A DNA stretch of 32,779 nucleotides. It comes from Candidatus Aminicenantes bacterium. Lineage in GTDB: Bacteria > Acidobacteriota > Aminicenantia > UBA2199. The position numbers were made by a program, and so were the translations under genes. The stretch spans positions 1-32,779 of the forward strand of contig JAGLQA010000095.1 of the NCBI GenBank assembly GCA_023137075.1, read 5' to 3'. The notes beneath the pieces were generated by a model. It worked only from the letters and a program-made list of their open reading frames with translations, made no database searches and was not told the DNA's origin. Position 1 is the stretch's first letter; every line of letters begins with the position of its first letter. Below are positions 5,721 to 29,433 of this stretch, piece by piece.

Positions 5721-5731
5721 GAGGATAAAAT

Positions 5732-6028
5732 ATGATACCGAAAGTAGATGTGTTTAAATGCGACGGCTGCGGCGTTTGTGTCAAACGCTGTCCCGCCCAT
5801 ATCATGGGCCTGATAAAAAATAAAGCGGCAATCCTGGTCGATTTGTGCGAGGAGTGCGGTATCTGCGCCGAAGTCTGCCCGCTTCATGCCATACATTTCC
5901 GCCTGCCCAACCGGGCGGTTGAGGATATTCATGAGAGCTATATATCTCCCCGGGTAGACCGGCCTACTCCCGGTAATTGGACGGTAGGCGTGTCGCGTGG
6001 ATATGACGGCGAGGGGCATCCCGAATAG
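5732..6028 (+). CDS. 2x[4Fe-4S] ferredoxin-domain protein with a roughly 40-aa C-terminal tail
   Basis: CDGCGVCVKRCP and CEECGICAEVCP motifs. RBS AGGAGG 6 nt upstream. Confidence 0.8.
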   Translation: MIPKVDVFKCDGCGVCVKRCPAHIMGLIKNKAAILVDLCEECGICAEVCPLHAIHFRLPNRAVEDIHESYISPRVDRPTPGNWTVGVSRGYDGEGHPE

Positions 6029-6098
6029 GTTGGATGCATTGTTCCCAAAAGAGTGAACCTGACGCTTTTAGAAAGCGCCAATAATAGGAGGTTAAAAA

Positions 6099-6515
6099 AT
6101 GAAAGTAAATAGAGTCGATCATATTTGCATTGCGGTAAAAAACTTAGATGAAGCCAGGAAAAAATGGGAGCCCATGTTGGGTAAGGAAAAACCCGATGAT
6201 GAGTATATCGACGAACCGGAAAAAATCAAGGTAGCCCGTTATTATCTCGGTGAAGTGGGTTTTGAATTGATGGAATCCACCACCCCGGACGGCGATGTGG
6301 CAAAATTCATCGAGAAGCGCGGCGAAGGCATCATGCTGCTCTCTTTCAATGTGGACAACACCCGTGAAGCAAAAAAAGAGATGGAGGGCAAGGGATATCC
6401 CTTTATCGGCGGCGCCCGGAAATTCCGCGATTGTGAATTTGCTTTTGTACACCCCAAAGCGACCAACGGTGTGTTGTTGGAATACATCGACGATAAAACC
6501 TCGGGAGCCAGGTAG
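6099..6515 (+). CDS. VOC-superfamily protein, methylmalonyl-CoA-epimerase-like
   Basis: VDHICIAVKNLDEA...GFELMES...GVLLEYID resembles the epimerase beta-alpha-beta-beta-beta modules. However, the GxHH(I/M)A block reads GIMLLSF, so one expected His metal ligand is missing. RBS AGGAGG. Confidence 0.55.
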   Translation: MKVNRVDHICIAVKNLDEARKKWEPMLGKEKPDDEYIDEPEKIKVARYYLGEVGFELMESTTPDGDVAKFIEKRGEGIMLLSFNVDNTREAKKEMEGKGYPFIGGARKFRDCEFAFVHPKATNGVLLEYIDDKTSGAR

Positions 6516-6561
6516 CAGCAAGAGCAAGAAGAGAATAAATAATCATTTCAATATAAAGACT

Positions 6562-6570
6562 TGTTATAAT
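6562..6570 (+). promoter_or_regulatory. Extended -10 element (TGtTATAAT), a possible internal promoter for the oxidoreductase gene
   Basis: Exact TGnTATAAT in the AT-rich 129-nt gap before the ATG at 6645. No convincing -35 element. Confidence 0.35.
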
Positions 6571-6644
6571 CAAGAGAAACAATTTTAGTTACAACGTTTT
6601 TTTTAAAAATTACTTCCGGATAAAATAAAAGGTGATGAAGAATC

Positions 6645-9167
6645 ATGTCGATGTTTAAAAAAATTGTAGAAGCTCCAAAAAACAGTAAATTTATTCTGCA
6701 GGGAAATGCGGCCTTTGCCTTAGGTGTGGTGCATGCCGGTTACCACGCCGCAGACGGCTACCCGGGTACGCCCAGTACAGAAGTTATCGATAAATCACTG
6801 GCCCATGTCCAGGATAGAATCCGGGTGGGCTGGTCGGTCAACGAAGCGGTTGCCGTCGGGGTTGCCGTGGGACGCACAATCGCCGGTTACGATACGGTGG
6901 TCACCATGAAAATTCCCGGTGTGTTCCAGGCGGGAGACGCCATCTCAACTTCGGCTTTCTATACCGCCGCTGCAGGCGCCCTGGTCATCTTTGCCGCCAC
7001 CGATTACGTTCCGTCCAGCACCCAGCATGTGATAGACGTCCGGTACTTCTTGGCCTCGGCCCGACTGCCGGTTCTGGAACCGCGTAACCACCAGGAGATG
7101 TACGAAATCGCCTGGACCGCCGCGGATATCGGCAGGACGTTCAATACACCTGTTGTTGTGCTGGCTTCCGGCATACTGACCCATTCGGAAGGACTGGTGA
7201 TAACAAAAGAACCGAGAACGATTACGCCCAAAGAAACACCGGAAAATTTGCATCAATGGATGTTGATGCCGGCCATTGCCAGGGCAAATTATAATAAGGC
7301 CACCCAGGAACGAATCCCGGCGATTCAAAAATGGATGGAAACGTCAAGCTTAGTCGAGGAGATCCCCGGTGCCGCGGATTGGGGAATCATCGCGAACGGG
7401 GAAAGCAGCATCGTTGTTCGCGAGGCATTGACATCGGTCGATTTGGACCAACAACCGTCTATTCTCACCCTGGCTGCCGCATATCCCATTCCCGGAGAAA
7501 GGATCAAAGCTTTTGCCGATAAAATAAAGGGGAAACTGTTTATCATTGAGGATGGCGATAAATTCCTTCAGGAAAAAATCCGGTTATTGGGTGTCGATAT
7601 TACCGGGAAAGATGAATTCAGTACAATCACAAACTGGTCGCCGGAAGCCGTACTGGAATTTTTGTCGCAGCATATCGACATTCACTATACGGGCAGCGAG
7701 AAAGAGATCGATATAAAGCCTCTCATGAGACCCCCATCCATCTGTCCGGGCTGCCCTTACAAAGCCTTTGCTTTGACCGTCGCTAAATTGAAAAAAAAGA
7801 AACAAATTTTTGCTGCCTTCGGCGACATCGGCTGCTCCACCCTGATATATTTTTTAAATGCCCTGGATACCGTTTGCTGTATGGGAGCGGCAGATTCCAT
7901 GAGACAGGGTTTCGTGATGTCAAAGCCGGAAATGGCTAACCGGACGATCAGTGTGATCGGCGATTCCTGCGAATGCCATTCCGGTTTGGATTCAACCCGA
8001 AACGCGGTGTTTCGAAACGTCCCGGGAGTTAAAATCATTTTAGATAACCGCATCACAGCCATGACCGGCGGCCAACCGGCCCCGAGTTCCGAAAATAATT
8101 TAGAAGGGCAGCCCCATAAGTTCAGTTTGAGAAAGGCAGTGGCAGCGGAAGTCGAACGAACCGTGACGGTTGATTCATACAATCTCAGCCAGGTTGAAAA
8201 AGAGTTAATAACGGCGCTGGAACTGGCGGAAAAAGGGGAATTCTCAGCCTTAATCCTTGAAGGCCCCTGTGTCCGGCAGGTAAAAAATAACAAAAAAACA
8301 CGAAAACTGCGATTTGACTATGACAAATGTAAAAAATGCGGCATGTGCGACATGTGCCCCGGCATCGAAACGGATGAAAAGGGCACACCCCATTTTACCA
8401 ACCGGTGTGTCGATTGCGGTTCCAATACCCAGGTCTGCATGCAGCGCTGCCCCTTCGGGGCAATCGTTCCCCTTGAAGAAGGGGCTCCTTCAGCTTCACT
8501 GGAACCGGAATTTCCGAAAGCGGAAGCAAAGCAGGCGGTTGATATAAAAACAGAAAATCTACCCGGGTCATTACGGCTTGCCATCCGGGGAATCGGCGGC
8601 CAGGGCAACCTGTTCTTCGGAAAAGTGCTCGCAGAGGTTGCCATGAGAACGCCTTATGCGGATACTCATATTGTCAAAGGCGATACCCACGGCATGGCGC
8701 AATTGGGCGGACCGGTTATTTCTACCTTTAGCTGCGGCCAGGTCTTTTCGCCTGTGCTGGCACCCCGTTCGGCCGACCTTTTAGTCGTCATGGAAGTCAG
8801 CGAAGTTTTACGGCCGGGTTTCTTAGATTTGTTAAAACCCGACGGCACGATCATTTTTAATAATTTCACGGCCTTACCGGTCACTGCCCGGAAGGAAGAT
8901 TATCCCGATCTTACAGCGGTTGAAAAAACGCTGGAAGGGTACCGGGTTATCAAAATTGATGCAAATGGAATTGCCTATGATCTGGGCGACCGGGCGGGCA
9001 GAACGGCCAACGTGGTGGTTCTCGGCTTGCTGTCAACCATCGCACCCTTTAATCATATCCCGGAAGAAGTCTGGCTCTCGGCTCTGATGGCCCTATCGCC
9101 GACTGATTTTATAAAATCGGCAAATCTAACGGCCTTTCGTGCCGGCAAAAAACACAGCCTGCAATAA
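6645..9167 (+). CDS. Indolepyruvate/2-oxoacid:ferredoxin oxidoreductase, IorA-IorB fusion
   Basis: N-terminus QGNAAFALGVVHAGYHAADGYPGTPSTEV. CPGCPY and GDIGC (TPP-binding region). A ferredoxin-like Cys cluster (CKKCGMCDMCP...CVDCGSNTQVCMQRCP). After a linker, LAIRGIGGQGNLFFGKVLAEV...GMAQLGGPV is typical of the IorB / POR-gamma domain. RBS AAGGTGAT. Confidence 0.8.
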   Translation: MSMFKKIVEAPKNSKFILQGNAAFALGVVHAGYHAADGYPGTPSTEVIDKSLAHVQDRIRVGWSVNEAVAVGVAVGRTIAGYDTVVTMKIPGVFQAGDAISTSAFYTAAAGALVIFAATDYVPSSTQHVIDVRYFLASARLPVLEPRNHQEMYEIAWTAADIGRTFNTPVVVLASGILTHSEGLVITKEPRTITPKETPENLHQWMLMPAIARANYNKATQERIPAIQKWMETSSLVEEIPGAADWGIIANGESSIVVREALTSVDLDQQPSILTLAAAYPIPGERIKAFADKIKGKLFIIEDGDKFLQEKIRLLGVDITGKDEFSTITNWSPEAVLEFLSQHIDIHYTGSEKEIDIKPLMRPPSICPGCPYKAFALTVAKLKKKKQIFAAFGDIGCSTLIYFLNALDTVCCMGAADSMRQGFVMSKPEMANRTISVIGDSCECHSGLDSTRNAVFRNVPGVKIILDNRITAMTGGQPAPSSENNLEGQPHKFSLRKAVAAEVERTVTVDSYNLSQVEKELITALELAEKGEFSALILEGPCVRQVKNNKKTRKLRFDYDKCKKCGMCDMCPGIETDEKGTPHFTNRCVDCGSNTQVCMQRCPFGAIVPLEEGAPSASLEPEFPKAEAKQAVDIKTENLPGSLRLAIRGIGGQGNLFFGKVLAEVAMRTPYADTHIVKGDTHGMAQLGGPVISTFSCGQVFSPVLAPRSADLLVVMEVSEVLRPGFLDLLKPDGTIIFNNFTALPVTARKEDYPDLTAVEKTLEGYRVIKIDANGIAYDLGDRAGRTANVVVLGLLSTIAPFNHIPEEVWLSALMALSPTDFIKSANLTAFRAGKKHSLQ

Positions 9168-9260: not shown

Positions 9261-10145
9261 TTATTCAACATTTTGCACTTGCTGTTTTATTTTTTCTATC
9301 TCCCGCCTGGTCTCTAAAATGGTATGAAGTACCTCCCGGGAATCGGTTTTCGAGGCGATGGTGTGGGTCTCCCGCTGCATCTCCTGGGCTAAGAAATCGG
9401 CTTCCCGGCCTTTTATCTCCGTCTTCTTATCTTTGAGCATTTCTTTCAATCTCCGGGTGTGGGTTTCTAAACGGTTGATCTCCTCGTTTATACAACTTTT
9501 ATCAGCCAGGATGGCTGCTTCCTGCAAGATTCTCTTCTCATCCATTTCATAATCCAGCAGGATTTTTTCAATCCGCTCTTTGTACTTTAAAAAGAGAGTT
9601 TGCGTGAGGTTCTCGGAATTTTTTTTGAATACTTTAATATTATTTTCAATGGTCTTGATACTGGCGAATAGATCCTTCAATATGTATCGGCCTTCCGTTT
9701 CGCGAGTATGTAAGAATTCTTTAAAAACCTTTTCTATGAAGCGTTTCATTTTATTCCACTCGGCTTCTTCAAAATTATCGGAAACATATTCGAGATGGAA
9801 TATCATGGGAATCTTCAATAAGAAATCGAGAGACAGATCGATACTTTCACCATATCGCTCCCTTATGAGATGTAATTTGTCGAGGATTTCCACCAGTAGA
9901 TTTTCGTTAAACTGAATGTTAAACCTCTTATTCCTGGAATCGAAAAGGTTGAAAATAATTTCCACTTTTCCCCTGGTAATTTTATGTTTTATGATCTCCT
10001 TCAGGAGTTTTTCGGACTTCGGCGTAATGCCCGAACCTTTAAAACTAACATCGAGAAAACGGTGATTTAAAGATTTAAAGGAAATGTATATGGAAATATC
10101 GTCAAATTCTGTCCGACCTTGCGCAAAACCTGTCATACTTTTCAT
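9261..10145 (-). CDS. yicC: YicC-family stress-induced protein
   Basis: N-terminus MKSMTGFAQG...FKSLNHRFLDV and C-terminus REIEKIKQQVQNVE are the hallmark ends of the YicC family. Confidence 0.85.
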   Translation of the reverse strand: MKSMTGFAQGRTEFDDISIYISFKSLNHRFLDVSFKGSGITPKSEKLLKEIIKHKITRGKVEIIFNLFDSRNKRFNIQFNENLLVEILDKLHLIRERYGESIDLSLDFLLKIPMIFHLEYVSDNFEEAEWNKMKRFIEKVFKEFLHTRETEGRYILKDLFASIKTIENNIKVFKKNSENLTQTLFLKYKERIEKILLDYEMDEKRILQEAAILADKSCINEEINRLETHTRRLKEMLKDKKTEIKGREADFLAQEMQRETHTIASKTDSREVLHTILETRREIEKIKQQVQNVE

Positions 10146-16066: not shown

Positions 16067-16085
16067 ATGGGCTGTGAGCTGAAAT

Positions 16086-16158
16086 GGTCCCTTAGCTCAA
16101 TTGGCAGAGCAATTGACTCTTAATCAATAGGTTGAAGGTTCGATTCCTTCAGGGATCA
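16086..16158 (+). tRNA. tRNA-Lys (anticodon CTT), 73 nt, no encoded CCA
   Basis: Hand-folded cloverleaf. Acceptor GGTCCCT/AGGGATC (one G-U pair), D stem GCTC/GAGC, anticodon stem ATTGA/TCAAT with loop CTCTTAA, variable loop AGGTT, T stem GAAGG/CCTTC with loop TTCGATT, discriminator A. A T8 run follows. Confidence 0.93.
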
Positions 16159-16319
16159 TTTTTTTTACCCAAAAACCATAATTCCCTGTAATCCCCCATA
16201 TCTTGAAATATCTTACCATCCATAATCTAATCGATTTTCACATAAAAATTTTATTTTCCTTGATTTTTTCCTTTTTTTATGTTACTTATCTTATAGAAGG
16301 AAATAGGAGGCCGAATAAA

Positions 16320-16532
16320 ATGGGTAGCTTCAAAAAGTGGTATCCAAAATTTGCTTTCTTGAATGGATTTGCAAGTTCGCTTGATATTTTTGGAATGAAT
16401 AGTATGAATTGGGAGGAATTGCAATCTATCATTTCTGTAAAAAGGAGAAATGAGGCAATTCATAAATATTTTAGGAATGCCTTAAAAGGAATTGATGAAG
16501 AAATCAAAAAAATTGAAGAAGTCAGAAGATAA
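16320..16532 (+). CDS. Hypothetical 70-aa protein
   Basis: The ATG at 16320 is preceded by AGGAGG (9 nt upstream). The upstream part of the track ORF (from 16203) is low-complexity and has no RBS. It overlaps the next gene by 41 nt. Confidence 0.45.
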   Translation: MGSFKKWYPKFAFLNGFASSLDIFGMNSMNWEELQSIISVKRRNEAIHKYFRNALKGIDEEIKKIEEVRR

Positions 16533-16965
16533 GAAAATTGAGAAAAGTACTACAGAAGACATTGATTTAGAAAAGGATGAATTTTCTCAAATTGGAATTG
16601 AAAGCGTAATTCAAAAAATCAATACTCCGTTTTTACCACCAAACTATTTAGAGAAGTATAATAAAGTTTATACTGGTTTCGCAAAAGAAATATGTGATTC
16701 AACTATTCTAACCATTCAGCATCAAATTGATAGTGAAAAAAAATTTATTGACAAGCAAAATAAAAAAACTCTTAGAGGGCAAGTTTTTGGTGTTCTTGTT
16801 GCTTTAACGAGTATCATTGCGGCGGTTATATGTGTTTTTAAAGGAGCCTTTACTGTCGCTGGAATTCTTGCAGGAGGTTCAGCTGTACCTCATATAATTA
16901 CTCAATTAATCAGTACAAAGAAGCCCGAAAAAAAAGAATCAAATAAGGAAGAAGAAAGTAAATAA
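16492..16965 (+). CDS. DUF2335-like membrane protein
   Basis: FLPPNYLEKYNKVYTGFAKEI...HQIDSEKK...RGQVFGVLVALTSIIAAVICVF...AGILAGG parallels the DUF2335 layout. That layout is LPPPE-L-x-Y, then a helical region, then RGQ-FG and two TM helices. Confidence 0.55.
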   Translation: MMKKSKKLKKSEDKKIEKSTTEDIDLEKDEFSQIGIESVIQKINTPFLPPNYLEKYNKVYTGFAKEICDSTILTIQHQIDSEKKFIDKQNKKTLRGQVFGVLVALTSIIAAVICVFKGAFTVAGILAGGSAVPHIITQLISTKKPEKKESNKEEESK

Positions 16966-17234
16966 AATAGCATTTGCTAACATTTTTAAAAGTGTGATTA
17001 CTTTTTGGACGCAATTAAAAAAATGATTGTAGTCGTTTCCGGGGGTAATAAAAAGGAGCGCTGTCCTGATTCGTTTTCTGACTTAAAAAAAAGGGCGTGC
17101 TCAAATGTTAAATTTTGTTAACTCGTTGGATTTCTGGTTATCCTCTTTTTTAGGGACTCTAAAAAAAGCACACCTAAGAAAGATGGTATTATTGATTTTT
17201 ATACGTGGGAATTGACACATCCCGGAAACCTCTT

Positions 17235-17855
17235 TTAAAATACTTTTTCTCTACGAAAAATAATCATAAACATATCTTTACCGCCAAACAAAGAGGTAGT
17301 ATCAGAATCTACGATCTTATCTAATAACCAACCCTCACTTGCATGTTGATTTAATATTTTTTCAAGAGTATCTGATTTCAAATTGCCTGTTAGAATAGAT
17401 TTTGCCTTTTGTTCTACTATCTTGTATTCATATATCTTCCTTCTTGTGTTTCTCTCATCTTTCTCTAATTCTATTTTACTCTCTCTTATTTCGATTTCTT
17501 TTTTCTTCTCATTTTTACTATCATAATTATCTAAATCAATATCTCTGTCTTGAAGGATTGCTTTTGTAATCTGTATGGTATCCTCAGACCGTTCATCCAG
17601 GTTATTATCTTTTACAATCAAAATTAGCTCTTCATTGCTTTTCTTTTCAAGCTTTTCTCTTTTCTGCTCAAATTCAATTTTGTTATTATAGCATTTATCA
17701 ATATCTACGTTCCTCTCACCAAGGATATTTTTTGCAATCTGTATGGCATCCTCAGACCATTCTTCAAGGTTATTATCTTTTACAATGATAGCTAAATCCT
17801 CATTACTTTTTTCCCCAAAGTTTTCTTTGATACTTTCTGATAGCTCACTACTCAT
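17235..17855 (-). CDS. Hypothetical protein with two N-terminal 39-aa repeats and a C-terminal DUF4177-like domain
   Basis: Start moved to MSSELSES (ATG at 17855, GAGGAGG upstream). The C-terminus YEYKIVEQKA...LEKILNQHASEGWLLDKIV...MFMIIFRREK resembles DUF4177. Confidence 0.6.
   Translation of the reverse strand: MSSELSESIKENFGEKSNEDLAIIVKDNNLEEWSEDAIQIAKNILGERNVDIDKCYNNKIEFEQKREKLEKKSNEELILIVKDNNLDERSEDTIQITKAILQDRDIDLDNYDSKNEKKKEIEIRESKIELEKDERNTRRKIYEYKIVEQKAKSILTGNLKSDTLEKILNQHASEGWLLDKIVDSDTTSLFGGKDMFMIIFRREKVF
17529..17813 (-). repeat. Intragenic tandem duplication (two 117-nt units, 168-nt period)
   Basis: aa 15-53 read EKSNEDLAIIVKDNNLEEWSEDAIQIAKNILGERNVDID. aa 71-109 read KKSNEELILIVKDNNLDERSEDTIQITKAILQDRDIDLD. 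The similarity is also visible at the DNA level. Confidence 0.9.
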
Positions 17856-17996
17856 GTTTCCTCCTCTTTTTTTACAATTATATAATCTCACATTTTAGCG
17901 ATTTTTTCAATCCTTCCAACAATGAATATGCTATTTTTTGTATAAATTGAGACATCCTATTTTTTTAAGACAGTCCGTTATTTAGTCGTGATTTCT

Positions 17997-18166
17997 GTTG
18001 TCAAATTTTGACATATGTTGACAAGTTTTGATTTTTTTAACATGTCACCGTTAAACTTTGATCGAATGTTGTCAAATTTTGATTACGTTTATCAACTTTT
18101 GATTGTAGTATATCAGATTGATGTCAGCCCATATCAAACTTGATTCCAGTGTATCAACCTTTGAAT
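17997..18166. repeat. Array of eight phased iteron-like inverted-repeat sites, consensus (G/A)TCAA-N1-3-TTGA(T/C)
   Basis: The sites are 17997-18012 GTTGTCAAATTTTGAC, 18017-18032 GTTGACAAGTTTTGAT, 18048-18063 CCGTTAAACTTTGATC and 18068-18083 GTTGTCAAATTTTGAT. They continue with 18087-18103 GTTTATCAACTTTTGAT, 18108-18122 GTATATCAGATTGAT, 18130-18144 CATATCAAACTTGAT and 18149-18166 GTGTATCAACCTTTGAAT. The 3' ends are spaced 20, 30, 21, 20, 19, 22 and 21 nt apart. Confidence 0.85.
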
Positions 18167-18194
18167 ACATTTTACTTTTCCGGGTAATAATGTT

Positions 18195-18271
18195 GTACGT
18201 TTTCCGTACTGTACGTTTTGTACTCAAAGTACCTTTTTATAACTCGATGTACTCCAGTAAAATTTTTGTAC
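18195..18271. repeat. GTAC-rich cluster including the direct repeat TGTACGTTTT x2
   Basis: GTAC occurs at 18195, 18206, 18211, 18220, 18229, 18249 and 18268. TGTACGTTTT occurs at 18194-18203 and 18210-18219. Confidence 0.8.
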
Positions 18272-18290
18272 TTTCGCAATCGACCAAACA

Positions 18291-18965
18291 TCAAAACCGG
18301 TTTGCCGCTGCTTTTAAATATTCCATCCTTTTTTTTATATAATCTTTGTCATGCGGTAAAAAATAAATCGAGCTTTCATTTATAGAATTTGCGTATTTTT
18401 CCATAACTATTTTTCGTTTCAATTTTTCATTTATCCATCTTGCTTCTTTCTGTATAAATTTTGCACCCATTCGATTTTGTATTTCTGTCTCATTATAACT
18501 TGTTGGTTCTCCATATTTTATTTTGAAAATGAAGAAAAGCTCCTCGAAGTGATTGGGAGTACAATTGATGAACACAGAATTAAGGAAAAGATTTTTTGAG
18601 TGATCTAATTTTAATCTTACCCGCCATTCTTTTTTGTATTTAGCTCTAAGCTGTTCAAGTCTTTCGGGAGTGTTCTTAAATAAAAAAACAATATCGACAT
18701 AAAAATCAAGGATTAAAAAATTATTTAATGTATATTTCCGCATAGCATACAATTCATCTAATTCCCTTGATGCTCCTTTCTTCCTTTCAGGATTTAAACC
18801 CGTTTTTTCATTAATATATGCTCTAAAACCTTTTAGTACCATGCCCCATTTGATTCCCATAAAACTACCCATTTGTTCCTTTTTTAAATCATCCGATATG
18901 TCTTCTGATAAACAAAGATTGACGCAAAAAAATAATACTACGATAAATAAAAAAAACTTTTTCAT
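18291..18965 (-). CDS. Hypothetical secreted protein (N-terminal signal peptide)
   Basis: MKKFFLFIVVLFFCVNLCLS is signal-like. RBS GGAGGA upstream of the ATG. No recognisable domain. Confidence 0.55.
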   Translation of the reverse strand: MKKFFLFIVVLFFCVNLCLSEDISDDLKKEQMGSFMGIKWGMVLKGFRAYINEKTGLNPERKKGASRELDELYAMRKYTLNNFLILDFYVDIVFLFKNTPERLEQLRAKYKKEWRVRLKLDHSKNLFLNSVFINCTPNHFEELFFIFKIKYGEPTSYNETEIQNRMGAKFIQKEARWINEKLKRKIVMEKYANSINESSIYFLPHDKDYIKKRMEYLKAAANRF

Positions 18966-19139
18966 TTTTCCTCCTTCAAATATTTCGTTAGCATATTTGA
19001 ATCAACATCTAAATTGTACTGGAAATTGGGAAATTGGGGACGGTGGGTGCGAGTGTGCGAATGTTGCTTTGCAATTTTTTAATCCTCATATTTTCTCTTT
19101 TTTATACATATTTCCCTTATTTGATTTCCCGGTCAGACC

Positions 19140-19262
19140 TTAACGACTCCAATTCTCGATCTTAAGATTCTCAACCCTCTTTATTCTTTTATTAATTTTA
19201 GGATATTTGTTTTTTAGCCAATAGATAACAATATCTGAGTCTAAAAGATAATTCTTATCCAT
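19140..19262 (-). pseudogene. vapC: vapC (PIN-domain toxin) remnant, only 40 codons
   Basis: Hand translation gives MDKNYLLDSDIVIYWLKNKYPKINKRIKRVENLKIENWSR*. The YLLDSDIVIYWLK block is the first PIN strand with the catalytic Asp, and the rest of the roughly 130-aa domain is absent. It starts 2 nt after the vapB-like stop. Confidence 0.6.
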
Positions 19263-19264
19263 TT

Positions 19265-19525
19265 TTAAAGGTAGATTTCATCAGAACGGATATTTTTTTC
19301 TCTATCTGACCTGATTTCAGCGATAATCTCATCAGCATCACGATCATCTTGCCATTTGCCGCAGAACCGGCTCAGACTGTGGGGCCGGGGTTCATCGGCA
19401 AAAATAATGATTCTCCTTTTAGTGCTTTTATTCGATCTGACTTTTATCTGTTTCGCTACATCAGGAGGTAATACAAGATGGCCATCCGGCAGTAATTCAG
19501 CTTCACAATTAATGGTTTTCAACAT
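19265..19525 (-). CDS. vapB: AbrB/SpoVT-type antitoxin (VapB-like)
   Basis: N-terminus ELLPDGHLVLPPDVAKQIKV is swapped-hairpin-like. C-terminus FCGKWQDDRDADEIIAEIRSDR is typical of VapB tails. RBS AGGAGG. Sits immediately upstream of the PIN remnant. Confidence 0.6.
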   Translation of the reverse strand: MLKTINCEAELLPDGHLVLPPDVAKQIKVRSNKSTKRRIIIFADEPRPHSLSRFCGKWQDDRDADEIIAEIRSDREKNIRSDEIYL

Positions 19526-19653
19526 AACCTCCTATTTTATGAGCATAATGAGTGCCTTTTCAGGTATCTCTAATACTCAGATATAATCTTATAACAAATC
19601 TTTTATTATTTCAATAAGAAAGTGGATATTGCTACTTTTTGAAGTGTACAACT

Positions 19654-22939: not shown

Positions 22940-22968
22940 TTGATTTTTTTAGTAAATACTGCTATCTT
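22940..22968 (+). promoter_or_regulatory. Putative promoter of the UPF0175/PIN-like/611-aa gene set
   Basis: TTGATT (22940-22945), 17-nt spacer, TATCTT (22963-22968), about 17 nt before the ATG at 22985. Confidence 0.3.
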
Positions 22969-22984
22969 AATACCGGAGAAAAAA

Positions 22985-23233
22985 ATGGTAATAACAATAC
23001 CTGAAAAAGTCGAAGAAGCGTTAAGAATTCCGGTTAAAGGAAGAGAAAGAGAACTAAAAAAACTCCTGGCCCTGAAACTATACGAGAAGGGAATTCTCGG
23101 TATGGGAAAAGCAAGAGAATTGATTGGTGTGGGTAGGTCGGATTTTTTCTATATTCTGAAAGAAGAGGGAATTTCTATAAACTTCGATAAAGAGGAGTTG
23201 GAAGAAGATTTAAAGACAATAGAGGGTATGTGA
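22985..23233 (+). CDS. UPF0175-family antitoxin
   Basis: LALKLYEKGILGMGKARELIGVGRSDFFYILKEEGISINFDKEELEEDL is the UPF0175 pattern. Start moved to the ATG at 22985 (GGAG upstream). Confidence 0.75.
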   Translation: MVITIPEKVEEALRIPVKGRERELKKLLALKLYEKGILGMGKARELIGVGRSDFFYILKEEGISINFDKEELEEDLKTIEGM

Positions 23234-23703
23234 AATTGAGTGCCGTATGTGACACCTCTGTTTTGATAGCGCTGGAATCTGTGGAAAAAATTCATCTTTT
23301 GCACGAAATTTTTTCCCACATCCTTATCCCGGAAGAAGTTTTCAATGAATTAGAAATCGAGCAAAGAGGGTTTAAATTAGAACAATGGATTATAGTAAAA
23401 AAAATCACCAATATCGATTTATGCAGCAGCTTATATTTAAACCTTGACTTAGGAGAAAGCGAAGCCATTACCCTGGCTCTTGAAAAGAAGACGGATTTTA
23501 TTTTGTTAGATGATAAAGAAGCAAGGAAAGCGGCAAGAAATTTAGGATTAAAAATAATAGGCACTGTGGGCATGCTTCTCCTTGCGAAAGAAAAGGGATT
23601 ATTATCTGGCTCCGTGATGGATGAAATTCAAAAGATGGAAAATAGAATAAATTTTCGTCTTTCTTCCGACTTAAAAAAGATTATAGAAAATTCAGGTGAG
23701 TAA
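23230..23703 (+). CDS. DUF3368 / COG2405 PIN-like toxin
   Basis: N-terminus VCDTSVLIAL. C-terminus LDLGESEAITLALEKKTDFILLDDKEARKAARNLGLKIIGTVGMLLLAKEKGLL is the DUF3368 signature. The GTG start overlaps the upstream stop (ATGTGA). Confidence 0.75.
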   Translation: MKLSAVCDTSVLIALESVEKIHLLHEIFSHILIPEEVFNELEIEQRGFKLEQWIIVKKITNIDLCSSLYLNLDLGESEAITLALEKKTDFILLDDKEARKAARNLGLKIIGTVGMLLLAKEKGLLSGSVMDEIQKMENRINFRLSSDLKKIIENSGE

Positions 23704-23741
23704 AAATAAATATAAAAAAATACGTTTATTAGGGAAAGACC

Positions 23742-25577
23742 GTGCCGTTTAAGAAAAAGATAAATAAAGAGAAGAAAGAAGAAACCAAAGAGAAAGAAGC
23801 GGTTACGAAAGAATTTAAGCCCAAATACAATAAGCCGAAAATTCTATTAATCGATTTACCTGAGAAGGCCCTTCAAAATGTTCGGTCTGCCGGATTTAAC
23901 ACTCATTCGGGTACGTTTGGTTCACCCTATAAAGTAGAACTAAGCAGCGGATACAAACCTTTAATTGCTGAACCTTCTCTGCCAAACTTTACTGAACAAG
24001 AAATCATCATAATCGACCTTAAACCACCTGAAACACTCAACGAACCGGAAGGGAAAAAAGATGTTCCCCTTGGAGTAGAAAATTGGTGGGTAAAATGCGA
24101 TATTGGTGTGATTGATCCAAGACCAAAATTTATGTTATATGTTCAAAAGCATTTCGACCGTATTTTGGAACATGGTGGATTATTTGTCATTTTTGCTAAA
24201 TCACGTTTAAATCAAGACATAGTATGGGGCAAAAGTGAATATGGTAGACTATCGGTTAACAAAAAACTGAAATACGATAACTGGTCATTTCTTTCGATTC
24301 TTAATCCAGAAAACATTAAGGTCAAAGAAGATTTTGGCGAAGAGATTAGCTTACCAGATTATAGTAATGATCATCCACTTTTTCAGTTTCTTAAACAGGA
24401 AATAAAAAATTGTGAATATGATGCCATTTTTAGGTCATTCCGAGAATCAGATTTCATGTGGCTTCCTATTTTAGAAAGCAAATACGGAGATGATGTTGCC
24501 GGAGTAATTATTCCGAAAGATTCAGAAGGTAATCACCTGAAGGAACGCATTATAATTTTGCCTCAAACAGAAAATAAATCTGAGGTAATACCCACTTTAT
24601 TGAAGGAGGTTCTTCCTGAAATATCTCCCCATCTTTTCCCTCATGTAGAAGGGGCTCGATGGGTGGAAAGAGATGAGTATGAACTTGAGTCAGTGCTCAA
24701 TCTTAAAGGACAAAAAGTAGAAGCACGGAAAAGAGTAGAAAAAGAGATCAAAGAGCTCGACATTAAAATAGCCGAAGAAAGGGGGAAGTTTGGATTTCTC
24801 CATAGGATTATTACCGGATGGAGTGATGAGCTTGTCAGGGATGTTAAAACCTGTCTTGAATTTATCGGATTCGAGCAAGTTCGAGATGTCGATGAGGAAA
24901 TCAAAAATAAAGCTAAAAAAGTGCCAAAACAAGAAGACCTTCAAATTCTTGATGATTCTCCTGCATTATTAATCGAAATAAAGGGATTATCAGGTCTCCC
25001 AAAAGAGATAGAAACTAATCAAGTTGAAAAATATATATCCAGGAGAATGAAAGAGTGGGATAGAACCGATATTCGTGGAGTATCGATAATAAACCATCTG
25101 CGTAACGTTCACGGACTTGAAAGAGAGAATGAAAATGTATTCTCCAAACAGCAGAAAGAAGACGCAGAAGATCGTGATATTACCATTTTAACTACCTGGG
25201 ATTTATTCCTACTAATTAGAGGGATGATCAAATGGAAATGGAACCCGAAAGCCATCCGAGAACTCTTTTATCAAAAAGGCAGAATGCCCAGGGTACCCGC
25301 ACATTATAAACCTATCGGAAGTATAACACATTACTGGGAAAAGCTGGGAGTAATTGAAATAAAAATTTCAAATGATAATATCAATAAAGGTCAACGCATT
25401 GGATATTTCATCAATAGCGTTTATTTAGAGGAAGAGATTCAATCCATGCAGGTTGATCAGCAGGGTGTTGAAGTGGCAACGCAAGGGCAATCGGTTACGA
25501 TTAAAACGAGATACAGTAAAAAAGAATTACCTAAGAAAGCAACCGTATACAAAGTTTTAAATGATTCTGGCTCATAA
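23742..25577 (+). CDS. Orphan 611-aa multidomain protein. Domains are a K/E-rich tail, an unknown alpha/beta-like N-domain, a coiled coil, a PD-(D/E)xK nuclease-like core and an EF-Tu-domain-2-like beta-barrel.
   Basis: Long uninterrupted ORF with a GTG start (GGGAAAG upstream), 38 nt after the PIN-like gene. Nuclease-like motif QED399LQI...LLIE412IK414G. The C-terminus PIGSITHYWEKLGVIEIKISNDNINKGQRIGYFINSVYLEEEIQSMQVDQQGVEVATQGQSVTIKT...TVYKV matches the small translation-elongation-factor-like barrel proteins. Confidence 0.7.
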   Translation: MPFKKKINKEKKEETKEKEAVTKEFKPKYNKPKILLIDLPEKALQNVRSAGFNTHSGTFGSPYKVELSSGYKPLIAEPSLPNFTEQEIIIIDLKPPETLNEPEGKKDVPLGVENWWVKCDIGVIDPRPKFMLYVQKHFDRILEHGGLFVIFAKSRLNQDIVWGKSEYGRLSVNKKLKYDNWSFLSILNPENIKVKEDFGEEISLPDYSNDHPLFQFLKQEIKNCEYDAIFRSFRESDFMWLPILESKYGDDVAGVIIPKDSEGNHLKERIIILPQTENKSEVIPTLLKEVLPEISPHLFPHVEGARWVERDEYELESVLNLKGQKVEARKRVEKEIKELDIKIAEERGKFGFLHRIITGWSDELVRDVKTCLEFIGFEQVRDVDEEIKNKAKKVPKQEDLQILDDSPALLIEIKGLSGLPKEIETNQVEKYISRRMKEWDRTDIRGVSIINHLRNVHGLERENENVFSKQQKEDAEDRDITILTTWDLFLLIRGMIKWKWNPKAIRELFYQKGRMPRVPAHYKPIGSITHYWEKLGVIEIKISNDNINKGQRIGYFINSVYLEEEIQSMQVDQQGVEVATQGQSVTIKTRYSKKELPKKATVYKVLNDSGS

Positions 25578-25622
25578 GTCATAATATTCTGGGTAAATTT
25601 TCTTTAACAGCAGTTATTGAAA

Positions 25623-25850
25623 GTGATGAGTAGTGGGGTTTCATCACGCTTCGCATGACTATTTACCTTCGGTGAGCCCACCACGTGGACAGGGGACGAG
25701 GCCGGGGCTAAACTAAAAAAAATATCGAGTGACGAATAGCGGACACCAAATGTTGTAGGGATATTCAATAATTCCTTATTGCTTGGGTATCCCTTATCGG
25801 TTCCCCGCGCTGCGGGGTTGAAAAAGTTTGATCAAAACTTTTATTTTTCC
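25623..25850 (+). other. Hairpin-rich non-coding segment (possible structured RNA or decayed sequence)
   Basis: GTGATGA/TCATCAC (25623-25647). Palindrome CCACGTGG (25681-25688). AGGGATA/TATCCCT (25757-25794). CCCCGC-gct-GCGGGG (25803-25817). AAAAGTTT/AAACTTTT followed by ATTTTT (25822-25848). No ORF. Confidence 0.3.
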
Positions 25851-25903
25851 TTCATTTTAAGTGTGACGCTACATTTGCGATGTGGGAATTTATCTTTAGG
25901 CAC

Positions 25904-25931
25904 TTGACCCGGGACGTCAACATGGTACAAT
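25904..25931 (+). promoter_or_regulatory. Putative promoter of the methyltransferase gene
   Basis: TTGACC (25904-25909), 16-nt spacer, TACAAT (25926-25931). The ATG at 25944 lies only 12 nt past the -10 element and has no SD. Confidence 0.45.
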
Positions 25932-25943
25932 GATGCCGGTACC

Positions 25944-26708
25944 ATGAGCCCTTTCAACCAGGAAAAAATTCTTTATCAAAAAAAGAGCCGCTATAACGAT
26001 ATCACCGTAACACAAAAAGGGTCCTATGTCACCCTGTACAGCCCGGAAGATATCATCCAGTCGGAAATAAATATCAAACAACCGCTAAAACCCCACCTCG
26101 AATTTAACCGTTACCTGCTCTTCAGCCTCGTTTTTTGCCCGAAACCTTCCGCCATACTGGTTTTGGGTCTCGGCGGCGGCGTGGTGCCTCGGGTATTGAG
26201 TGCGATTTGCCCGGAAGCAATTGTGGATGTGGTGGAAATCGACGCGGAAATGTTAAAGGCAGCGGAGAACTATTTCGGTTTTACCACGTCTTCCCGGCTA
26301 CGCGTGCACCTTGAAGACGCCCGCGCCTTTATTCGCCGCACCCGGAAGGAATACGACCTGATCATCGTAGATACCTACTGTGGCCTCAACCTGCCCCAAT
26401 CCATCGATAATCCCTCATTTTTCAAGGATTGCGGCAACCTGTTGTCAGAAGGGGGCATCCTATCGGTTAACCTGATTCCTTTCGACAAACTTTTCATGGA
26501 GAAACGGTTGGACTGGATCAAACAGGCTCTCACCAATATCTGCCTGATGCGCGGCGTCACCCGGCTCAATGAAGTGGTTTATGCGGGAAGAAGGCCGGTG
26601 GAGAAATCGAACCTTTTACAAAACGCGACTTTTTTAAAAAAAAGACTCCCATCTAATTTAAAAACCAGGCAATTGTGCAAACACTTAGAATGCCGTAGTG
26701 GCGGGTAA
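25944..26708 (+). CDS. Spermidine-synthase-like SAM-dependent methyltransferase-fold protein
   Basis: ILVLGLGGGVVPRVL (SAM motif I), VDVVEIDAEMLKAAENYFGF and YDLIIVD are arranged as in spermine/spermidine synthase family proteins. Confidence 0.7.
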   Translation: MSPFNQEKILYQKKSRYNDITVTQKGSYVTLYSPEDIIQSEINIKQPLKPHLEFNRYLLFSLVFCPKPSAILVLGLGGGVVPRVLSAICPEAIVDVVEIDAEMLKAAENYFGFTTSSRLRVHLEDARAFIRRTRKEYDLIIVDTYCGLNLPQSIDNPSFFKDCGNLLSEGGILSVNLIPFDKLFMEKRLDWIKQALTNICLMRGVTRLNEVVYAGRRPVEKSNLLQNATFLKKRLPSNLKTRQLCKHLECRSGG

Positions 26709-26921: not shown

Positions 26922-29318
26922 TTATCGCTGCAGCTCGAGAAGCATCTCCTCGAAGGGTACCGGGTAGGCTGTCAACCAGACCACCGGTTGAAGCTTCGTT
27001 TTCTTTTTCTTATAAGCCATCACATAGACTTCGATATTCTTTCCGATCATATCTTTTGTGACCGGCGCGTAATATGTATAATTTTTATCACGCCGGACTG
27101 TTACATATTCCCAGGTATTGGCAGGATAAGATGGCGCCCGGTCCGGGCAGCCGACCGGTTTGCCGGCGACTTTCAACGCGGCATAGGCGCTTTCGATACC
27201 GTGTTCGCCCTCTAAGGCGATACATATATAACTACCTTTAACCCACTCGTCGATATAGAACCGGGCCTGCCAGGCTTTTACCGGTGTCATCCTCCGCGGA
27301 TGAGCGAACAAATTGGATGCCCGCCACTTTTTCGGGGAAAGTAATTTGCCGTTGAAAAACCCTTCGATCTCCGTAATGCGATCCGGAAAAGCCCGGAAAC
27401 GCAGGTAGCGCACCGGCCCGGGCAATTCGATGACCATACGTTTACCGGCCAGGTAGGTCAGCCGCTTCCAGGATTTCAGGTCGGTGGACACCTCCACATG
27501 ATTCCCCTCATCTTTGAGCAGCGGATGCAGGGAATATTCATCGGGCACATGCAGGACGATGCGTTCTACATCCAGCACCTCACCAAAATCAAGCCGGAGG
27601 CAGCCGTTCTTCACTCGCCGGTCAATCAGGTATTTCCGGGACGGCCAGAAACCGGTGCGCATGTCGCCGTCGAAGAGGTTGCGGTCCCGGACTCCCCGGT
27701 TCACAAAGGTGGGCTGGTTGAAGAAGGCGTCTCGCGCTGCCTGGACGCTGGGAATCCGCGTCGGCCCCGAACGAAATAGGCTGCGTACTTCCAGGGCATT
27801 ATTGTCGGCGGCAAAAACCGTGGCTTCGTACAATGCTTCGGCATCCTCCGGCACCTTACATTCGCTCATATCGGCCGGTTTCCTATGCCAGTGGTTTTTT
27901 AATTTTTCCCCGGGAAATGTTATTTCCAGGGATTTTCCCTTTAATAATTCGCCCACATTCTCCCCGGAAAGGTATGCCTGGGAAAAAAACCTGCCCTCTG
28001 CCCTGAGCTTAATCGAGCTTTTCTGACCGGGGTAACCCAATAATTCGATTTTGAGGAGATCACCCGGTGTATCGCGAATCACCCGGTAGTCGCAGCCCTC
28101 GATACCGGCTTCCTCGCAGGGCTCGACCGAGGCTAAAAGCAAACAGGCCCGGAAGGGCATTACCGTAACCGGCACTTTTGTCCCCGGCGCGAATCTGCCG
28201 ATGATTTTTTCGGTTGGATGAAATTGCCGCAATTCGATAGGGCGGTTCACGAAGAGGCCGATTTTTTTACCCAGGTTGATTTTATACTGCACCGGCTGCC
28301 AGGTCAGGTTTCGCAGGGTAATCAACCGGGTTTTTTCACTGCCCCGGGATACGGCATAGGGGCCGTAGTGCCGCTTCGGCAGCGGCATGCCTTTGACCAG
28401 GATATCTCGATAACGGCGGTGCAGGTTGTAAATCCGGGCCAGTTTGGGAAATTCCTCATCCCGAAGCAGCCAGGGATTGCCGTAAATCTGGGGGGCCAGG
28501 ATGAGGCAGCGGTTAAAGGCCTGCAGTATAAGATCATCCTCCCAAAAGTCTAAGCAGGAAGAGAGGCACACACCATGATCTTCGGTGAGTCGTTTCAACC
28601 CCGGCACCAAACCGCGGGAAATGGCGTCGGCCCGGTGGTGAGGAGCGGTAACGGTGTTGCTGGAGAAGACATCGATGTAGGTTTCTTTTCCCTCCCAGAG
28701 GAAGGTAGTGGCATAAGCCCGGGCTCGCTCCAGCCCGAGGCGGTGGTTGAGCAGGATCAAATCCGGGCTGTACTTGCGGCATAGAGTCATCATGCGGATG
28801 AAAGCATCTTCTTTTTCCGGTCGCAGTGGGCCGCACACGGCATCGAATTTAAACAGGGCGAAGTCAAAATCCCGGCACAGGCTCACCATCTGGGCAATGC
28901 GCGCTTGCTCTTCTTCCGGCGTATCGCCGAAGCCATCCGGCCCTCCCCAGATACCGAGCCGCGTCCCCATGCACCCGGCCTCCCGGTAAACCGGGGTGAA
29001 ATCATCAGGAAATTGTTCGCGGAAACGCTGCGAATCCCTTCGGCCGTAGAACCGTTTGCCGTCGATGGCGCCGGCGTCAAAGGCGTAAATATCCAGCACC
29101 ATTCCGTACTCAGTGTGCAGCCATTTGAAGAATTCCAGGTTGATCAGGGCCTGTTTTTCGGTGGCGCCTTCGTTGGTGTTGTTGATCCAGGAAAAATATT
29201 GCGATCGGGAGGGCGTGTTTTCGTCAGCGCCGGGAAAAACAGGCGGCTTCTCCCCATCAACAAAGCCTGGTATCGCGAATAAAAACATAAAAATAGTAAT
29301 TAAAAAAAAAATTTTCAT
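26922..29318 (-). CDS. Secreted 798-aa protein, possible glycoside-hydrolase-like TIM barrel with a C-terminal discoidin (F5/8 type C)-like domain
   Basis: Signal peptide MKIFFLITIFMFLFAIPGFVDG. An N-terminal region with alternating beta/alpha character and FKFDAV. LRLDFGEVLDVERIVLHV...VEVSTDLKSWKRL looks discoidin-like. The family was not recognised with certainty. Confidence 0.45.
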   Translation of the reverse strand: MKIFFLITIFMFLFAIPGFVDGEKPPVFPGADENTPSRSQYFSWINNTNEGATEKQALINLEFFKWLHTEYGMVLDIYAFDAGAIDGKRFYGRRDSQRFREQFPDDFTPVYREAGCMGTRLGIWGGPDGFGDTPEEEQARIAQMVSLCRDFDFALFKFDAVCGPLRPEKEDAFIRMMTLCRKYSPDLILLNHRLGLERARAYATTFLWEGKETYIDVFSSNTVTAPHHRADAISRGLVPGLKRLTEDHGVCLSSCLDFWEDDLILQAFNRCLILAPQIYGNPWLLRDEEFPKLARIYNLHRRYRDILVKGMPLPKRHYGPYAVSRGSEKTRLITLRNLTWQPVQYKINLGKKIGLFVNRPIELRQFHPTEKIIGRFAPGTKVPVTVMPFRACLLLASVEPCEEAGIEGCDYRVIRDTPGDLLKIELLGYPGQKSSIKLRAEGRFFSQAYLSGENVGELLKGKSLEITFPGEKLKNHWHRKPADMSECKVPEDAEALYEATVFAADNNALEVRSLFRSGPTRIPSVQAARDAFFNQPTFVNRGVRDRNLFDGDMRTGFWPSRKYLIDRRVKNGCLRLDFGEVLDVERIVLHVPDEYSLHPLLKDEGNHVEVSTDLKSWKRLTYLAGKRMVIELPGPVRYLRFRAFPDRITEIEGFFNGKLLSPKKWRASNLFAHPRRMTPVKAWQARFYIDEWVKGSYICIALEGEHGIESAYAALKVAGKPVGCPDRAPSYPANTWEYVTVRRDKNYTYYAPVTKDMIGKNIEVYVMAYKKKKTKLQPVVWLTAYPVPFEEMLLELQR

Positions 29319-29433
29319 CGTCAGGTTACCTGCCGGAAGGAAATCATATCAAAATGAATTATCATTTGCAATACCGGATCATTTGTAAAAATTAATAAAA
29401 TTAACAGAAAACTGGAAAGCATATGGCAAATTC

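Follow-up and report, generated by a model that had tools for sequence, protein, structure and literature searches.

Results

Locus and reading frame

The subject of this study is an open reading frame (ORF) of 611 codons, designated ORF611, in a DNA stretch of 32,779 nucleotides (hereafter, the window) from a Candidatus Aminicenantes bacterium (contig JAGLQA010000095.1, positions 1 to 32,779 of the forward strand; assembly GCA_023137075.1). The encoded protein is predicted to comprise a charged N-terminal tail, an α/β domain (N-domain), a long helix, a PD-(D/E)xK nuclease domain, and a β-barrel of the translation-factor domain-2 type, and its gene follows a toxin–antitoxin (TA) pair on the same strand after a gap of 38 nt (Table 1). 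The coordinates and length of ORF611 are exactly those given in an earlier note made from the sequence alone; the strings cited there are also in place (KILLIDL at residues 33–39, IIIIDL at 88–93, GGLFVIFA at 145–152, EDLQI at 398–402, and LLIEIKG at 409–415), and its nucleotide spans for D399–K414 (24936–24983) and residues 522–606 (25305–25559) are arithmetically right. Upstream of the ORF is a Shine–Dalgarno-like AGGGAAAG, whose end lies 4 nt before the GTG. The deposited call of ORF611 is a 481-residue form (P0001) starting at M131, which lacks the larger part of the N-domain's first half (the first 130 codons, window 23742–24131, are left out). Since the alignments of homologs with ORF611 begin at about residue 17–29 and 611-residue proteins are called on two contigs 99.9% identical to the window (L036 and L037), the long form is the right one, and the deposited call needs correction.

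Table 1 Positions and properties of ORF611, its predicted domains, and the flanking features in the window.
Feature	Position (nt)	Strand	Remarks
Complete ORF (ORF611)	23742..25577	+	611 aa, GTG start; belongs to a large unannotated family
Disordered Lys/Glu-rich tail, aa 1–28	23742..23825	+	pLDDT <50; conservation 0.12 across the family
N-domain, aa 29–300	23826..24641	+	Three-layer α/β with an extra antiparallel sheet; distant GATase1-like fold without the catalytic triad
RWVERDEYEL segment and 43-residue helix 316–358, aa 301–358	24642..24815	+	Heptad pattern; putative coiled-coil oligomerization element
PD-(D/E)xK nuclease domain, aa 359–520	24816..25301	+	Fold matches; most conserved part, 0.55
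Catalytic core D384, E398-D399, E412-x-K414-G415	24891..24983	+	Column counts, 141 members
Translation-factor domain-2-type β-barrel, aa 521–606	25302..25559	+	EF-Tu/IF2/eIF5B-like; U32 peptidase C-terminal domain-like
UPF0175 antitoxin (22940–23233) and DUF3368/PIN-like toxin (23230–23703)	22940..23703	+	PADLOC phage-defense candidate PDC-S70, E 5e-39
Segment replaced in related strain L035	23295..26904	.	About 125 nt of gene scraps instead; flanks 97–98.6% identical
Two hairpins (CCCCGCGCTGCGGGG, then AAAAGTTTGATCAAAACTTTT and a T-run)	25799..25860	+	In the 366-nt spacer 3′ of the ORF; probable terminator region

Nuclease domain

The full-length protein was modeled by AlphaFold2 with an alignment of 34 sequences (mean predicted local distance difference test (pLDDT) value of 85, predicted template modeling (pTM) score of 0.53), and residues 29–520 were modeled again (pLDDT 86.5, pTM 0.62); folds were compared by Foldseek, and residue conservation was derived from column counts over 141 diverse family members that are 29–44% identical to the query. 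The nuclease fold and the EF-Tu domain-2-like barrel foreseen in the earlier note were both found, and its four-part architecture was borne out in every part by the models and Foldseek, leaving aside a single residue (E363) discussed below.

By fold and motif, the domain at residues 359–520 is assigned to the PD-(D/E)xK superfamily, in agreement with the restriction-endonuclease fold formerly read at residues 355–495. Its secondary-structure order in the model (helix 362–375, strands 380–382, 400–402, and 408–415, helix 422–439, and strand 444–451) corresponds to an α-β-β-β-α-β core. The fold matches in the PDB are Nt.BspD6I (probability 0.99–1.0), EcoO109I, Hjc resolvases, the cap-snatching endonucleases of bunyaviruses and arenaviruses, and Cdn1, and many proteins of the "restriction endonuclease" or Mrr type were matched in the viral library with probabilities of 0.93–1.0. 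No curated PD-(D/E)xK family scored above threshold (HSDR_N_2 appeared below threshold in 3 of 34 members, NucS_C in 1 of 34), and a sequence profile search against the PDB gave no nuclease match. The nuclease domain is better conserved than any other (0.55 vs 0.41–0.45). D384, E398, D399, G415, and R461 are invariant (141/141), position 412 is always acidic (Glu in 120 members, Asp in 21), and K414 and N451 are each found in 140, a pattern that indicates an intact active site. Conservation extends 3′ of the core to a helix motif, Q427-x-x-x-Y431, which follows the ExK strand and which we take to resemble the QxxxY motif of RecB/Cas4-type nucleases, and to N451-H452 and R461. The residues D399, E412, and K414, formerly singled out as catalytic, are thus among the near-invariant positions (E or D at 412), whereas E363, proposed along with them, is Glu in only 36 of the 141 members and was rejected as a catalytic residue; D384 and E398 are the additional conserved acidic residues.

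C-terminal barrel

The assignment of the C-terminal domain to the translation-factor domain-2 class is made on the predicted fold, with borderline support from sequence. All 50 PDB matches listed for the full-length model are barrels of EF-Tu, EF1A, IF2, eIF5B, aIF2-gamma, or SelB or the C-terminal domain of U32 peptidase; the translation-factor barrels were matched with E values of 7e-8 to 4e-5 (probability 1.0), in keeping with the six-stranded barrel of EF-Tu domain 2, and among compact matches that of the U32-peptidase C-terminal domain (4he5/4he6) is the best, with a template modeling (TM) score of 0.80–0.87 and a root-mean-square deviation (rmsd) of 1.5 Å over 85 residues. In sequence, GTP_EFTU_D2 is the sole Pfam family recurring for the barrel, in 9 of 34 members and, at E ≤ 0.5, in 14 of 74 (best E 9.3e-5, below the gathering threshold); the window protein itself has no GTP_EFTU_D2 match, and the family profile matched eIF5B among PDB sequences at E 0.013. 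The barrel earlier drawn at residues 522–606 from a sequence pattern is recovered by Foldseek. No GTP_EFTU or P-loop GTPase domain is present, the region N-terminal of the barrel being the nuclease, and no barrel–nuclease fusion was found in the libraries or literature searched.

N-domain, helix, and tail

In the N-domain, D38, G60, E85, E87, D92, D125-P-R127, F151, W181, E201, K247, and P274 form a conserved set among the 141 members; the charged residues (D38, E85, E87, D92, D125, R127, and E201) are 84–96% identical, or about 93–100% when D/E/N substitutions are counted. In the model, D38, D92, and F151 are located at the C-terminal ends of strands 33–37, 88–92, and 147–151, and it is the C-terminal strand edge that usually carries the ligand-binding or active site in flavodoxin-like folds. 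Because of this placement of conserved residues, the model suggests a putative binding or catalytic crevice. With the barrel removed, the sole PDB fold match below E 1e-3 is 3fij (lin1909; E 2.7e-4, probability 1.0, TM 0.44, rmsd 12 Å), which we take to be a class-I glutamine-amidotransferase (GATase1)-like protein; the GMP-synthetase entry 2vxo was matched at E 0.04. The Cys-His-Glu triad of such amidotransferases is missing, the position after strand 147–151 (A152) being Ala, Val, Ser, Cys, or Gly, and no column of the N-domain is occupied by Cys or His in 90% or more of the members (the highest are Cys at column 228, 87/141, and H144, 78/141). An active glutamine amidotransferase was rejected on the missing triad. 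No Pfam family recurs for the domain in 34 + 74 members even at relaxed thresholds. The N-domain is a sequence family of its own whose resemblance to the GATase1 fold is weak, which fits the earlier description as flavodoxin- or GATase1-like with no nameable catalytic motif.

The RWVERDEYEL segment that follows is practically invariant (W307 in 141/141, Y313 in 140/141). In helix 316–358, the best heptad register has hydrophobic residues at 0.67 of the a/d positions (family mean 0.70) vs a background of 0.39, and the region weakly matches coiled-coil oligomerization families; the heptad pattern leads us to infer that the protein may oligomerize through a coiled coil in this helix, close to the one noted at residues 310–350. 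The Lys/Glu-rich tail reported for residues 1–30 is real in the window protein (11 Lys and 6 Glu, 17/30). Only the close subfamily has such a tail, since the N-terminal tails of the 141 members have a median length of 15 residues and a net charge of about 0, with a conservation of only 0.12.

Family size, novelty, and distribution

A word-indexed search yielded 284 homologous 90%-clusters, nearly all of about 590 residues and aligned end to end at 43–61% identity, and an exhaustive HMMER profile search over 1.84 billion cluster representatives (50%-identity clusters) yielded 691 representatives at E ≤ 1e-30, 1,227 at ≤ 1e-10, and 3,102 at ≤ 1e-3. Among the best 150 of the 691, almost all have 550–650 residues and match essentially the whole profile, about 8 being evident fragments (354–520 residues). 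The ORF611 protein matched nothing above threshold in Pfam, NCBIfam (2026), PADLOC (2023), PHROGs, or PDB sequences (phmmer/hmmsearch), all of its named homologs are "hypothetical protein" save two evidently spurious JGI labels, and in the literature no description of the architecture was found (no papers on ECA1632; no matching text in the DefensePredictor and other defense papers). The architecture called novel in the earlier note is therefore novel with respect to these libraries. Although it has at least 691 clusters in archaea and about ten bacterial phyla, the family lacks a name and is not modeled in Pfam, NCBIfam, or PADLOC; a profile should be built for it.

Mapped taxonomically, the architecture is patchy. 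A pattern scan with one genome per species detected 23 loci among 185,579 species genomes, belonging to three archaeal groups (Methanophagales/ANME-1, Methanothrix, and Methanobacterium) and, among bacteria, to Caldisericum, Ignavibacteriota, Scytonema, Bacillota, Pyrinomonadaceae, Thermoguttaceae/Pirellulales, Bifidobacteriaceae, Deferrimicrobium, and Acidovorax. A branch of 25% identity was recovered by tblastn against plasmids, on Synechocystis pSYLB and on plasmids of Klebsiella, Serratia, and Pantoea; the 563-residue Klebsiella plasmid protein is a full-length member (hhalign probability 100 over 540 columns, barrel and motifs included). This branch is spread in Enterobacterales (Klebsiella, Citrobacter, Serratia, Salmonella, Yersinia, Providencia, Enterobacter, and Pectobacterium, the last with ECA1632) and also occurs in Pseudomonas and Vibrio. 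No near-identical copy of the Klebsiella gene was present in complete E. coli genomes, for which a distant search was not run. A phage-borne gene was rejected, as the IMG/VR scan gave no relative and INPHARED only one unverified faecal contig. That sole match (L041, MT837188.1, "UNVERIFIED Bacteriophage sp.", positions 4983–6677) is 25% identical over 94% of the protein and lies on an unannotated, putatively viral contig of 7.5 kb.

Genomic context

All-vs-all BLAST clustering of 261 neighboring ORFs from 26 loci revealed no conserved partner gene, by which an obligatory partner was rejected; the sole large cluster consists of generic ABC ATPases, and three Methanothrix loci (L006, L016, and L019) are merely syntenic. 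A classical restriction–modification (R-M) enzyme and an effector of the cyclic-oligonucleotide-based antiphage signaling system (CBASS) or of type III CRISPR were likewise rejected, there being no conserved linked methyltransferase, cyclase, or CRISPR genes. Individual loci show a recurrent type of surroundings. In L002, hsdR precedes the nuclease gene by 30 nt, and Fic genes are close by; in L022, the nuclease gene comes after hsdS/DUF4209, and hsdR follows it at 10 nt; in L027, hsdR is 0.5 kb downstream of the nuclease gene, and DUF4357 and a TIR-like gene are also nearby. Elsewhere, the nuclease gene follows MmeI-like enzymes with AbiEii downstream (L033), an OLD-like ATPase that itself follows an MmeI-like enzyme (L009), or Fic (L004), or is part of a PLD/Mrr/helicase island (L001). 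In Methanothrix (L006), the last 4 nt of the nuclease gene are shared with a 71-residue RelB-like gene (9884–10099), after which come HicB/HicA, an arrangement that may represent a lineage-specific translational coupling of the nuclease with a small antitoxin-like protein. On mobile elements, the gene is flanked by IS1 on a K. pneumoniae IncF plasmid (L038), forms part of the cargo of a P. atrosepticum integrative and conjugative element (ICE) together with a PLD gene (L042/43), and, on a K. michiganensis conjugative plasmid (L039, NZ_CP024642.1, 2459–7683), stands directly downstream of pifC and a 728-residue P-loop NTPase (pifA-like), with an Abi-family gene 3 kb on; the pifC/pifA-like pair is presumably the T7-exclusion module of the F plasmid, and this locus looks like a compact plasmid defense cluster. 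Scans of 119 further neighbors gave matches to type I restriction endonucleases (REases) and to PLD/DrmC-like, Mokosh-like, MADS-like, and PDC-S39 proteins. By raw count, a defense or mobile context is found in roughly half of the independent loci. The gene is thus a self-sufficient singleton, accessory and mobile; this mobile, defense-island-type biology is beyond what the earlier note proposed, namely, that sensing of a translation-related ligand might be coupled to cleavage.

Window locus and deletion in a related strain

The flanking genes point to an Acidobacteriota-like metagenome-assembled genome. Within the window, the GC contents of the antitoxin (35%), toxin (35%), and ORF611 (36.7%) are low vs the 48–54% of the genes for a TonB receptor, a SpeE-like protein, and a 798-residue protein, which points to the PDC-S70 pair and ORF611 as one foreign block. 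In the related strain L035, the scraps derive from the toxin gene (window 23273–23294 and 23686–23710) and the SpeE-like gene (26065–26098 and 26307–26393), and 23711–26064, with the whole of ORF611, is missing; the scraps left behind speak for decay by deletion, and the nuclease gene is therefore dispensable. Inspection of the junction between the window and L035 sequences revealed no target-site repeats. The internal deletion of the L035 toxin leaves an orphan antitoxin. The gene lost together with the nuclease encodes a spermidine-synthase-like S-adenosylmethionine-dependent methyltransferase (Spermine_synth, E 1e-10; 25944–26708, + strand) of native GC content (48%), of which two scraps remain in L035; it is not a recurrent neighbor at the other loci.

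The hairpins of the 366-nt spacer are probably terminators, because the hairpin at 25799–25823 is single-copy in the window and has no match in Rfam, results on which a structured RNA or a CRISPR array 3′ of the ORF was also rejected. Within 25799–25860, GGTTCCCCGCGCTGCGGGGTTGAAA has the look of one type I-E-like CRISPR repeat; the second hairpin (AAAAGTTTGATCAAAACTTTT) and the T-run come after it.

Farther from ORF611, in 16085–19640, a tRNA-Lys(CTT) gene (16085–16159) is followed by a block of 30–32% GC with ORFs lacking Pfam matches and a DUF4177 protein; L035 has other genes at this place (DUF6429 and an HTH_17 excisionase-like gene). The region is a second variable island, probably associated with the tRNA. 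Within the DUF4177 ORF (17235–17891), two adjacent direct repeats of about 170 nt (17495–17658 and 17654–17826, − strand) are 72% identical and represent an internal tandem duplication. L035 further carries an extra insertion of about 1.75 kb (10733–12482 of L035) with a 499-residue gene lacking a Pfam match, between the 798-residue and PilZ genes, which is missing from the window (about 29387–29392). The 798-residue protein (26922–29318, − strand) has a signal-peptide-like N-terminus (MKIFFLITIFMFLFAIPGFVDG) and no Pfam match at E ≤ 1e-5, and is kept in related strains.

Discussion

The results described above lead us to propose, with a confidence somewhat above even, that the ORF611 family is a stand-alone, self-contained, and horizontally mobile DNase of defense or conflict, most likely a single-protein anti-phage or anti-plasmid system. 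This reading is drawn from the apparently intact active site, the fixed architecture (the nuclease together with the same three elements across the best 150 of the 691 representatives, and also in the 25%-identical Klebsiella member), the lack of a partner, the defense or mobile context, the dispensability of the gene, and its patchy spread. In the predicted mechanism, helix 316–358 would dimerize the protein, because cleavage of duplex DNA by PD-(D/E)xK enzymes takes two active sites, and the flanking domains would hold the nuclease inactive in uninfected cells, because a constitutive nuclease would kill a cell that has no antitoxin or methylase against it, and nothing else in the loci could restrain it. 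The nuclease would then be freed by an infection cue, which may be some ligand or protein that binds to the N-domain in its conserved acidic crevice or some feature of a nucleic acid that the barrel recognizes, resulting in restriction of the invader or abortive infection. DNA is the favored substrate because the nearest folds are those of REases, Hjc, and Mrr-type enzymes.

Several observations weigh against this proposal. The pTM scores of 0.53–0.62 make the inter-domain geometry of the models unreliable, and the autoinhibition, dimerization, and trigger are themselves steps that we infer. Cap-snatching RNA endonucleases are found among the nuclease fold matches, and a DNA substrate is deduced from the nearest folds alone. 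The PADLOC-DB v2 (2023) models, among them those of Shedu, Card1/Can2, Cap4, PD-T4/T7/lambda, Gabija, and Hachiman, gave zero matches for the window protein and both Klebsiella plasmid homologs, and none above noise for the Synechocystis homolog. Finally, the association with defense islands is only moderate, because at least six loci have housekeeping immediate neighbors (mobA/moeA, leuS, HAD/aminotransferase, radical SAM/ADH, DMT/LysR, and radical SAM/methyltransferase genes). If the family is indeed a defense system, it would be a single-gene nuclease whose two putative sensor domains, the EF-Tu domain-2-type barrel and the catalytically dead GATase1-like domain, are unprecedented in immunity, and it would raise the question of the cue read by such domains; since IncF plasmids of Klebsiella carry members next to pifCA and an ICE of P. 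atrosepticum carries another, the hypothesis can be tested in standard hosts.

Two other readings are each rather unlikely to be correct but deserve to be weighed. The first is an abortive-infection nuclease directed to RNA or tRNA, in the manner of PrrC/RloC, whose barrel would deliver the nuclease to tRNA or translation-linked RNA once a phage disables the linked R-M or guard system. The barrel of ORF611 is homologous to those of EF-Tu domain 2 and eIF5B/IF2, and in translation factors the EF-Tu/IF2-type barrel contacts the tRNA acceptor or aminoacyl end; moreover, three unrelated lineages (L002, L022, and L027) have the gene inside a type I R-M operon or abutting one, just as the anticodon nuclease PrrC sits in such operons, and RNA endonucleases are among the PD-(D/E)xK fold matches. 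However, an R-M system is missing from most of the loci, the window among them, the nuclease folds that match best are those of DNA enzymes (Nt.BspD6I, EcoO109I, Hjc, and Mrr-type), and the barrel fold also occurs in settings that do not involve tRNA, such as the U32 peptidase C-terminal domain, its best compact match. The second, held to be of similar likelihood, is a selfish cargo nuclease serving plasmids, ICEs, or islands through addiction, exclusion of competitors, or its own spread like a homing endonuclease. Its occurrence on plasmids (the IS1-flanked copy of K. pneumoniae and Synechocystis pSYLB) and an ICE, the singleton insertions between housekeeping genes, and the linkage to TA modules are all consistent with such a role, whereas an integrase or transposase is not consistently adjacent, the window/L035 junction has no target-site repeats, and a multidomain build of about 600 residues with two putative sensors is atypical of homing endonucleases. 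This reading also overlaps with that of a defense nuclease, because plasmid-borne exclusion is itself defense.

It is also conceivable, albeit speculative and with the chances clearly against it, that the barrel, rather than being a generic adaptor, is a co-opted translation-factor module that gives the nuclease one of two sensing logics. In one (a), the barrel would bind the 3′ aminoacyl/CCA end of tRNA or a base with an amino-acid-like adduct, making the enzyme a nuclease directed to tRNA or hypermodified DNA; in the other (b), it would serve as a built-in EF-Tu decoy, trapping phage proteins that hijack or attack EF-Tu and thereby turning the nuclease on. In both cases, the way of sensing would be new to prokaryotic immunity, and the barrel would be accompanied by another novel sensor, of triad-less GATase1-like fold, in a family found in archaea as well as bacteria. 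We think it improbable that the N-domain is itself an enzyme, with D38, E85, E87, D92, D125, R127, and E201 at work in a hydrolase or transferase that depends on metal or phosphate. The protein would then have two functions and might, for example, modify as well as cleave nucleic acid or deplete a metabolite; the high identity of these charged residues and the position of D38 and D92 at C-terminal strand ends would suit this role, but the N-domain carries no catalytic motif of any known family, lacks the GATase triad, and has a weak fold match. Least probable is a housekeeping nuclease of DNA repair or recombination, NucS/EndoMS- or RecB/Cas4-like with accessory DNA-binding domains, to which the apparent QxxxY likeness, the weak NucS_C and HSDR_N_2 matches, and the presence of Hjc among the fold matches might point, but with which the extremely patchy distribution, the loss of the gene in the near-identical strain L035, its foreign GC content, and its variable, non-repair neighborhoods are hardly compatible.

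The stand-alone defense nuclease that we favor is worth comparing with known systems. Type IV REases (PvuRts1I/AbaSI, MspJI, and Mrr) and END nucleases, in which a Type IIS-like nuclease is joined to an inactive EndoIII (PMC12191111), combine a PD-(D/E)xK nuclease and a non-catalytic reader co-opted from a housekeeping protein in one polypeptide, as may ORF611. These enzymes and the ORF611 family alike have no cognate methyltransferase and occur in defense islands beside R-M systems. Unlike the Type IV and END enzymes, the candidate readers in ORF611 are an EF-Tu domain-2-type barrel and a GATase1-like domain, and no modified-base reader domain (SRA, PUA/EVE/ASCH, YTH, or DUF3427; also EndoIII and winged helix) was detected by Pfam in 34 + 74 members. 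To our knowledge, neither an EF-Tu domain-2-type barrel nor a GATase1-like domain has been known as a sensor of DNA modification. The barrel shares its fold with those of translation factors (GTP_EFTU_D2/D4) and the U32 domain (4he5/4he6), with TM scores up to 0.87, and contains the S-x-Q-...-A-x-x-G-x-x-V-G-I motif typical of domain 2 of EF-Tu and eEF1A; unlike in translational GTPases, it is not accompanied by a GTPase domain and scores under the Pfam gathering threshold.

Shedu (SduA, DUF4263) is likewise a stand-alone PD-(D/E)xK defense nuclease, whose N-terminal domain has a regulatory or sensor role and which is presumed to stay autoinhibited until invading nucleic acid is encountered; ORF611 differs in having no PADLOC Shedu match, a different N-domain fold, and an added coiled coil and C-terminal barrel. 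The CARF/SAVED effectors (Card1/Can2, Cdn1, and Cap4) are dimers of a Rossmann-like α/β sensor with a PD-(D/E)xK nuclease, and Cdn1 is among the fold matches of ORF611, whereas the N-domain of ORF611 has no CARF or SAVED match by sequence or fold, and no cyclase, type III CRISPR, or CBASS is linked at any locus. PrrC and RloC are latent nucleases traveling as passengers of type I R-M operons, as the ORF611 family does at three loci (L002, L022, and L027); in contrast to them, the nuclease fold of ORF611 is unrelated, an ABC-ATPase domain is absent (no ATPase motif or Pfam match), and most members are not linked to R-M. NucS/EndoMS also combines a PD-(D/E)xK nuclease and a small β-barrel in one dimeric protein, and one member of the ORF611 family has a weak NucS_C match, but the domain order is reversed in ORF611, the barrel is of another type, and the gene is accessory, unlike a conserved repair enzyme. 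Altogether, by analogy, the ORF611 family would work most like the single-polypeptide sensor–nuclease restriction enzymes (Type IV REases and END nucleases) and Shedu, and, with its function deduced as above, it would be new within the stand-alone defense-type nucleases by virtue of its unprecedented accessory domains.

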